The translations under genes were made by a program, and so were the position numbers. From contig JBHLOY010000003.1 of NCBI GenBank assembly GCA_048939995.1, positions 128,001 through 192,000 on the forward strand: a stretch of 64,000 nt of DNA, written 5' to 3'. Under the pieces are notes generated by a model. It was not told the origin of the DNA. It made no database searches and saw only the letters and a list, made by a program, of their open reading frames with translations. The number at the start of each line of letters is the position of its first letter. The stretch's first letter is position 1. The stretch comes from Promethearchaeota archaeon. Lineage in GTDB: Archaea; Asgardarchaeota; Lokiarchaeia; Sigyniarchaeales; SOKP01. Below are positions 27,293 to 33,256 of this stretch, in pieces.

Positions 27293-27381
27293 TACAATAA
27301 CCTGGTTACTTTGAAAATAATTTAATAATATTCAATTATACTTTTGATTAAAATTTTAGGATTATAGTCATTTAAAGAAGA

Positions 27382-27484
27382 GCGGGAAATGATAATTCTC
27401 ATAACTCAAGATCATCTTCATGAAATTGATAATTAATTATCAATTTTCAGTTGGGTCAGAGTTTTCAACGAAATCATTTCCCGC
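27382..27484 (-). ncRNA. Candidate box C/D-like guide sRNA / double K-turn hairpin
   Basis: 12-bp terminal inverted repeat GCGGGAAATGAT/ATCATTTCCCGC. On the minus strand: D' CUGA, 24-nt palindromic stem, C' AUGAAGA, 12-nt guide, D-like AUGA. Confidence 0.55.
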
Positions 27485-33152: not shown

Positions 33153-33256
33153 AGCCCGGTAGTGTAGTGGCCAAGCATTTGGGACTCTGAATCCCGAGAT
33201 TCAGAGCAACTTTACACTCTGAAAGGGATACCACGGTTCGAATCCGTGCCGGGCTA
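33153..33256 (+). tRNA. tRNA-Gln(CTG) with a 31-nt intron in the variable loop (~33199..33229)
   Basis: Acceptor AGCCCGG/CCGGGCT, anticodon arm TGGGA-CTCTGAA-TCCCG, T arm CACGG-TTCGAAT-CCGTG. Removing 31 nt gives a 73-nt tRNA with variable loop AGAC. Confidence 0.88.

Follow-up and report, generated by a model that had tools for sequence, protein, structure and literature searches.

Wobble-directed box C/D guides, and guides whose pairing is assisted by an intron of the target tRNA, are already known. Human SNORD97 and SCARNA97 are said to direct the methylation of C34 of elongator tRNA-Met, a finding attributed to Vitali and Kiss in 2019, and the sR-tMet and the intron-borne tRNA-Trp guide of Haloferax volcanii were reportedly treated by Joardar et al. 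in 2011 and Singh et al. in 2004. Among archaea, a few Euryarchaeota are known to have box C/D guides directed at the wobble residues of tRNAs. In Pyrococcus, C/D sRNAs target the wobble residue of tRNA-Leu(CAA) and tRNA-Leu(UAA), as well as of tRNA-Met and tRNA-Trp (PMC7994747). The haloarchaeal systems add another element, in that bases of the intron join the pairing with the sRNA, so that methylation precedes splicing (PMC2584109, PMC5372725).

A further RNA of this type is encoded by a member of the Asgard archaea (Promethearchaeota), on the minus strand of the 64,000-nt window (the whole stretch of DNA that was analysed), where the complete gene of 103 nt occupies 27382..27484. Comparison of its sequence with those of its relatives indicates that the element is a box C/D sRNA, the guide part of the archaeal L7Ae/Nop5/fibrillarin 2'-O-methyltransferase, and it is likely to be a dual-guide RNA that acts on intron-containing pre-tRNAs. 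What is new, none of it having been found in Rfam or in the literature search, is a phylum-wide family in which one guide is dedicated to conserved intron motifs, together with the snoRNA-like architecture of its members in this order: Rfam holds no family for the RNA, and literature searches on C/D guides, wobble positions of tRNAs and the Asgard archaea brought up no Asgard wobble guide.

The Pyrococcus wobble guides (2001, by the account in PMC7994747) resemble the present RNA in lying antisense over the anticodon loop, in placing the +5 nucleotide on residue 34 of tRNA-Leu and in relying on the same protein machinery. No sequence homology with them was detected, and they differ from it in several ways: here a single G-bearing guide could serve both the CAA and the UAA isoacceptors, intron motifs are the partners of the second guide, and boxes C and D of this copy are degenerate. 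The present RNA is also longer, at about 103 nt including its long terminal stem and its internal hairpin, than the Rfam models for C/D sRNAs of the Pyrococcus type, which span 53-65 positions. The sR-tMet and the intron-borne tRNA-Trp guide of H. volcanii are alike in another respect, as the target is a precursor, intron bases are paired and the RNP acts before splicing (PMC5372725, PMC2584109, PMC11408192). In these haloarchaeal guides, as those papers present them, the intron bases lie within the duplex that methylates residue 34, whereas here a separate D' guide is given over wholly to the intron motif; that motif stands some 15-25 nt from the anticodon and, unlike in sR-tMet, the guide for the anticodon loop fits tRNA-Leu and not tRNA-Met. 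Human SNORD97/SCARNA97 (C34 of elongator tRNA-Met; PMC7994747) share with it the placing of a C/D RNA at a tRNA wobble residue within the eukaryote/Asgard lineage. With its long terminal stem and a full kink-turn inside, the present copy is closer to snoRNAs than to typical archaeal sRNAs; the perfectly matched tRNA differs, however, and the likeness is one of target type and build, with no homology claimed.

Read 5' to 3' on the minus strand, the RNA opens with one strand of a perfect 12-bp closing stem (RNA positions 1-12, 27473..27484), which pairs with the 3' strand at the other end (92-103, 27382..27393); both the minus-strand sequence and this stem had been put forward in the sequence-only reading, and they match 27484..27382 exactly. 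The stem is invariant in the genus, and other complementary sequence pairs take its place in other genera. It is followed by UUC (27470..27472), the 5' strand of a short helix beside the C/D kink-turn, with GAA at 27396-27398 as its partner strand (of the three pairs, two persist in 16-17 of 18 sequences), by a 3-nt GUU bulge and by GAAAA, whose first bases supply the GA of the kink-turn. The degenerate box C (UUGAAAA, 27462..27468) overlaps these elements and retains its UGA core in nearly all genus sequences (G19 and A20 invariant, U18 in at least 90%). An 11-nt spacer, the D' guide, leads from UUGAAAA to the genus-invariant box D' (CUGA, RNA positions 35-38, 27447..27450), and a 24-nt palindromic hairpin (39-62, 27423..27446) closes the C'/D' kink-turn. 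The 3' half continues with a 3-nt CAU bulge (27420-27422), the last two bases of which are the first two of box C', and with GAAGA, so that box C' reads AUGAAGA with a C before it (64-70, 27415..27421); it is conserved in the genus, three members of which, like other lineages, read AUGAUGA here. A 12-nt spacer, the D guide, separates C' from the variant box D (AUGA, 83-86, 27399..27402), after which come GAA, UU and the second strand of the closing stem. The minimum free energy is -30.9 kcal/mol, and a set of 200 dinucleotide-shuffled versions gives -15.6 +/- 2.6 (z = -6.0). Folding of the plus strand is just as good, and the strand was therefore assigned from the conserved boxes and guides.

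Both halves of the molecule are compatible in sequence with a kink-turn. In C'/D' the covarying hairpin and the CAU bulge would be followed by G.A, A.G, A-U and G-C pairs, and in C/D the UUC/GAA helix and the GUU bulge by G.A, A.G, A-U and A.A. The fifth box position is A in both C and C', which predicts an A-U pair in both kink-turns at the position where box C/D motifs usually carry U.U. Boxes C and D of the present copy are off consensus, with the GA dinucleotides for the tandem sheared pairs kept; at the aligned positions in other genera and classes box C reads AUGAUGA or GAUGAUA, and box D, which is AUGA throughout the genus bar one UUGA, reads CUGA (also UUGA or AUGA). Homologues from other Asgard classes have the compact form of a textbook sRNA (65-85 nt, with AUGAUGA and CUGA boxes), built in the order short stem, box C, 12 nt, D', short loop, C', 12 nt and box D. 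Three oddities are specific to the order: the terminal stem of 11-12 bp, the extra short helix by C/D and the hairpin that makes a full C'/D' kink-turn, where a typical archaeal sRNA has a K-loop. The description of the element as box C/D-like, already given in the sequence-only reading, is thus upheld by near-invariant spacers, covarying stems and, in the other Asgard homologues, canonical boxes with 12-nt spacers. Rfam gave nothing in the window at gathering thresholds, and the best permissive score for the present copy (about 17 bits) is at chance level; the compact homologues resemble C/D families only, in every case below threshold, the best being snoPyro_CD at 27.7 bits (threshold 45). 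Additionally, fibrillarin (260.8 bits) and the Nop domain of Nop5 (211.5 bits) are encoded by adjacent genes, an operon, on contig C19 of the same genome.

The gene is present in a single copy in its 3.75-Mb genome. A mobile element or repeat was considered and rejected on this ground, the only other match (on contig C11) being an AT-rich palindrome in coding-like sequence. Full-length orthologues with 74-93% identity were recovered by BLAST in 21 of the 24 genus relatives. A covariance model trained on 18 genus sequences scores the present copy at 122.7 bits and detects one gene copy each in 121 of 151 genomes of the order, as well as matches in many families of the phylum, namely in 53 of the 151 genomes that were sampled from it; judged by these matches, the RNA family is kept across the Asgard archaea. 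The genus alignment leaves the spacers, D', C' and the terminal stem nearly unchanged and places the variation in the internal hairpin and the flanks. This hairpin has changed on both sides in 6 of its 9 pairs, in a compensatory manner, with a covariation score above that of 500 of 500 shuffles and of all slid controls, and among genera the terminal stems differ in sequence while keeping their complementarity. The internal hairpin was shown by per-sequence folds and by pair counts on a stated structure; consensus folding of a plain MAFFT alignment missed it, owing to misalignment.

The RNA lies between two genes on its own strand. The stop codon of a formyl-transferase (PurN-like) ORF (27503) is 18 nt upstream of it, and the start of an EF-2-like GTPase ORF (27292) is 89 nt downstream. 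The order formyl-transferase, sRNA, EF-2 paralogue is found in 64 of 70 Promethearchaeota loci, across which the RNA ends 77-99 nt before the EF-2 start codon and follows the upstream stop at a distance of about 20 nt; in the sister family, three genomes keep the order of sRNA and EF-2 with a gap of a few tens of bases. So strict an order, held in the sister family too, would suit a leader of the aEF-2 paralogue mRNA that binds L7Ae and regulates in cis, the alternative raised when the sequence was first read, or an element in the 3'-UTR of the purN-like gene. Such a leader fits the local synteny but not the core function, and we hold this explanation to be highly improbable: in six genomes of other Asgard classes neither the EF-2 paralogue nor purN adjoins the RNA, and because the family persists there the function of the RNA appears to be independent of its neighbours. 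Moreover, a protein-binding leader needs no invariant 10-nt antisense elements with complements in tRNAs, and a separate promoter-like motif stands between the RNA and the EF-2 gene. This motif, of 17 nt (27344..27360, minus strand; CCUAAAAUUUUAAUCAA, = CCTAAAATTTTAATCAA), has changed little among about 50 loci that belong to several genera, exceeds the surrounding spacer in conservation and may serve the EF-2 paralogue gene as a promoter or operator. Co-transcription of the RNA with a neighbour is possible, archaeal C/D genes being often co-transcribed with neighbours that they do not regulate (PMC7994747).

The D guide (12 nt, 27403..27414) has the core GAUCUUGAGU, which is unchanged in every homologue read, from the genus to other Asgard classes. 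The sequence-only reading had paired it with ACUCAAGAUC of the tRNA-Leu(CAA) anticodon arm, with the +5 nucleotide on C34, and exactly this arm occurs in the tRNA-Leu(CAA) genes of 12 genus relatives, in which GGACUCAAGAUC(C) provides 10 contiguous pairs with the guide at positions 31-40. The nucleotide at +5 from box D falls on C34 both in the present copy and in the compact homologues whose box D is a canonical CUGA. In the assembly of the organism itself, no tRNA-Leu(CAA) was detected (BLAST with the genes of the relatives retrieves only tRNA-Leu(UAA)), and exact ACUCAAGAUC is found in no tRNA of this assembly and at three other genomic sites, all of coding-like context. The gene may be unassembled or lost; tRNA-Leu(UAG), too, was not found in this genome by the tRNA scans. 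In the organism's own tRNA-Leu(UAA) the arm differs only at position 34, which leaves ten pairs, of which the one at the target nucleotide is a G.U and may not support methylation. The predicted duplex energies with the D guide are -15.6 kcal/mol for tRNA-Leu(CAA), -13.4 for tRNA-Leu(UAA) and -8.9 for both tRNA-Leu(CAG) and tRNA-Met. Against the anticodon loop of tRNA-Met the guide has two mismatches, at positions 36 and 37, and methylation of the tRNA-Met wobble residue by it is doubtful; a crude search of the same genome for a separate tRNA-Met C34 guide (antisense GAUUAUGAG followed by a D box) gave no convincing candidate. The wobble-methylation chemistry predicted for tRNA-Leu has precedent, because the Pyrococcus guides target the same residues (PMC7994747).

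The D' guide, CUCUGACCCAA, occupies 27451..27461, and its core UCUGACCC is invariant across the order, as conserved as the D guide. Its target had been expected in rRNA or tRNA. Neither rRNA nor mature tRNA supplied one, and the complement proved to be a conserved motif in pre-tRNA introns. Against the 16S and 23S rRNA of genus relatives there was no contiguous match, only 9-10 of 12 positions in scattered form; the organism's own assembly lacks the 16S and 23S rRNA genes. A G.U-rich duplex between the D' guide and the T-stem region, possible with several tRNAs (-13 to -17 kcal/mol), was set aside, since two G.U pairs would be required and the placing follows no positional logic. The 10-nt complement of D' has five sites in the genome besides the antisense strand of the sRNA itself, a number near chance expectation, and one of the five, UUGGGUCAGA, is in the intron of the elongator-type tRNA-Met(CAU) (G000:C28:237433-237538). 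A single tRNA among five sites is already unlikely, because tRNA genes make up far less than 0.1% (<<0.1%) of the two-strand sequence.

The motif is widely kept in this intron. Its core GGGUCAGA is found in the intron of 30 of 31 tRNA-Met genes of the genus, the remaining record ending at a contig edge within the motif, and the genes that keep it include six with the intron on the other side of the anticodon loop. CUCAUA followed by GGGUCAGA within 5-35 nt occurs in 95 of 151 order genomes; the sister family retains the motif amid quite different intron sequence, and tRNA-Met introns from other classes have it too. A second precursor carries it as well: 102 of 151 order genomes have GGGUCA(N)GA at 5-35 nt upstream of ACUUAAGAUC, within a D-arm intron of tRNA-Leu(UAA), and the controls gave no hits. 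In the sister family the D' guide pairs with this tRNA-Leu(UAA) motif over 8-10 contiguous pairs, and in the organism's own family one extra A leaves only 7. As the same precursor also matches the D guide, both guides can therefore bind one pre-tRNA-Leu(UAA) molecule.

These observations bear on whether the RNA is an ordinary single-target C/D sRNA, in which the D guide alone works, D' is an orphan and the intron motif is kept for splicing or folding. One functional guide and one without a target are common among tRNA-directed archaeal sRNAs (PMC7994747). The predicted hairpin of the tRNA-Met intron places the first part of the motif in the loop and part of the motif in the stem, and given this overlap some of its conservation could be structural. 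Additionally, the D' guide differs in some Asgard families with no tRNA partner detected: for the f23 and f24 lineages, which have a different D' guide, the complements found no tRNA match among the loci inspected, and for f9 and f28 the search for the D' complement was too unspecific to read. On the other hand, orphan spacers are not normally as invariant as the D' core is across the order, and the complement is kept in the introns of two tRNAs and at two intron positions. The D' guide and the pre-tRNA-Met intron, moreover, form 8-10 contiguous pairs in each genome checked (six genomes from five families), and the flanks of guide and intron change together in four lineages, as ..CCCAA/UUGGG.. 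in the present genome and as ..CCCCU/AGGGG.., ..CCCCA/UGGGG.. and GUCUGACCCC/GGGGUCAGAC elsewhere. We regard this covariation between two separate RNAs as the strongest evidence that the D' pairing is selected, and we judge it unlikely that the RNA serves a single target only. The dual-guide reading is the one followed below.

The tRNA genes observed alongside have features of their own. Most of them carry introns, a number of these within the D or T arm, and for this reason standard tools recover few: only about 20 were found in this genome by ARAGORN and the Rfam tRNA model and about 28 by an acceptor/T-arm scan, while relaxed ARAGORN returned mostly false hits. The tRNA-Leu(UAA) gene (G000:C28:126721-126869), about 1.1 kb upstream of the start of the window, has two D-arm introns, of which the second is kept across the order and the first occurs only in a few members of the genus; ACUCAAGA in that first intron was considered as a target and dismissed as chance, since it is not conserved in relatives. 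In five genus relatives (L115, L126, L128, L132, L135) the tRNA-Leu(CAA) gene has a T-loop intron together with a D-arm intron, which hides it from searches based on the T loop. Within the genus, the tRNA-Met intron of L064-L070 is found at two positions (after the anticodon and before the anticodon loop), in both cases with GGGUCAGA, a pattern that suggests relocation of the intron under constraint. An intron-containing tRNA-Gln(CUG) gene lies in the window itself at 33153-33256 (+); the sequence of the anticodon loop and 3' stem of this tRNA, ACUCUGAAUCCC, is similar to the D' guide in sense, not antisense, orientation, probably by coincidence. In another Asgard family, two tandem tRNA-Met-like genes about 190 nt apart (G176:C356:8427-8644) each carry GGGGUCAGA.

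From these comparisons we infer that the RNA is transcribed and assembled into an RNP, and that its D guide would direct 2'-O-methylation of C34 in tRNA-Leu(CAA) and possibly, through G.U, of U34 in tRNA-Leu(UAA). Since the D' guide pairs with motifs in pre-tRNA introns, the RNP most likely engages tRNA precursors before splicing. The duplex with the intron would then most likely be a site for docking and unfolding: the loop of the predicted intron hairpin would expose the motif's first part, so that pairing could start there, and the docked RNP would hold the precursor so that the D guide may invade and open the anticodon arm for methylation of the wobble residue. On pre-tRNA-Leu(UAA) both guides would act on the same molecule. 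The D' duplex itself is wholly intronic, and by the +5 rule it would point to the third G of the intron motif, a product of no obvious use; C34 of tRNA-Met is not at +5 of this duplex, unlike with guides of the sR-tMet type.

Some eukaryotic C/D snoRNAs act in pre-rRNA processing, and by analogy the RNP could be a non-catalytic chaperone that steers the folding of the precursor or the timing of its splicing, with methylation secondary or absent. The intronic position of the D' +5 nucleotide would suit such a role, as would the capacity of pre-tRNA-Leu(UAA) to take both guides and the wealth of introns at unusual tRNA positions in this lineage. The D guide, however, obeys the +5 rule exactly, at a wobble position that is C/D-methylated in other archaea, the spacers of 12 nt are those which the geometry of methylation requires, and fibrillarin is encoded in the genome, all of which make a purely chaperoning RNP quite improbable. 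A bolder form of the docking model with methylation may be put forward tentatively, as a possibility rather than an expectation: GGGUCAGA would be the docking site of the RNP and the reason why the intron is retained in pre-tRNA-Met and pre-tRNA-Leu(UAA) throughout the Asgard archaea, the D guide, once anchored, would methylate the wobble residue even through a G.U pair or two mismatches, and modification would be coupled to splicing.

The RNA is an easily recognised marker of the phylum, with an invariant 10-nt guide, and it leads one to expect Cm34, and possibly Um34, in those leucine tRNAs that read UUR codons in the closest archaeal relatives of the eukaryotes. Through the RNA, moreover, an sRNA guide is connected with short conserved motifs in tRNA introns, a connection which the covariation of guide and intron supports and which may offer a functional reason for keeping particular tRNA introns, and the RNA provides a tractable system for asking how guide RNPs reach structured anticodon arms. 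Its snoRNA-like build is of interest for the transition from sRNAs to snoRNAs. If the bolder form of the docking reading is true, the two guides of this C/D RNA would divide the work between them, an arrangement for which no earlier description was found, and which would be a possible forerunner of the snoRNA-guided methylation of tRNA-Met C34 in eukaryotes.
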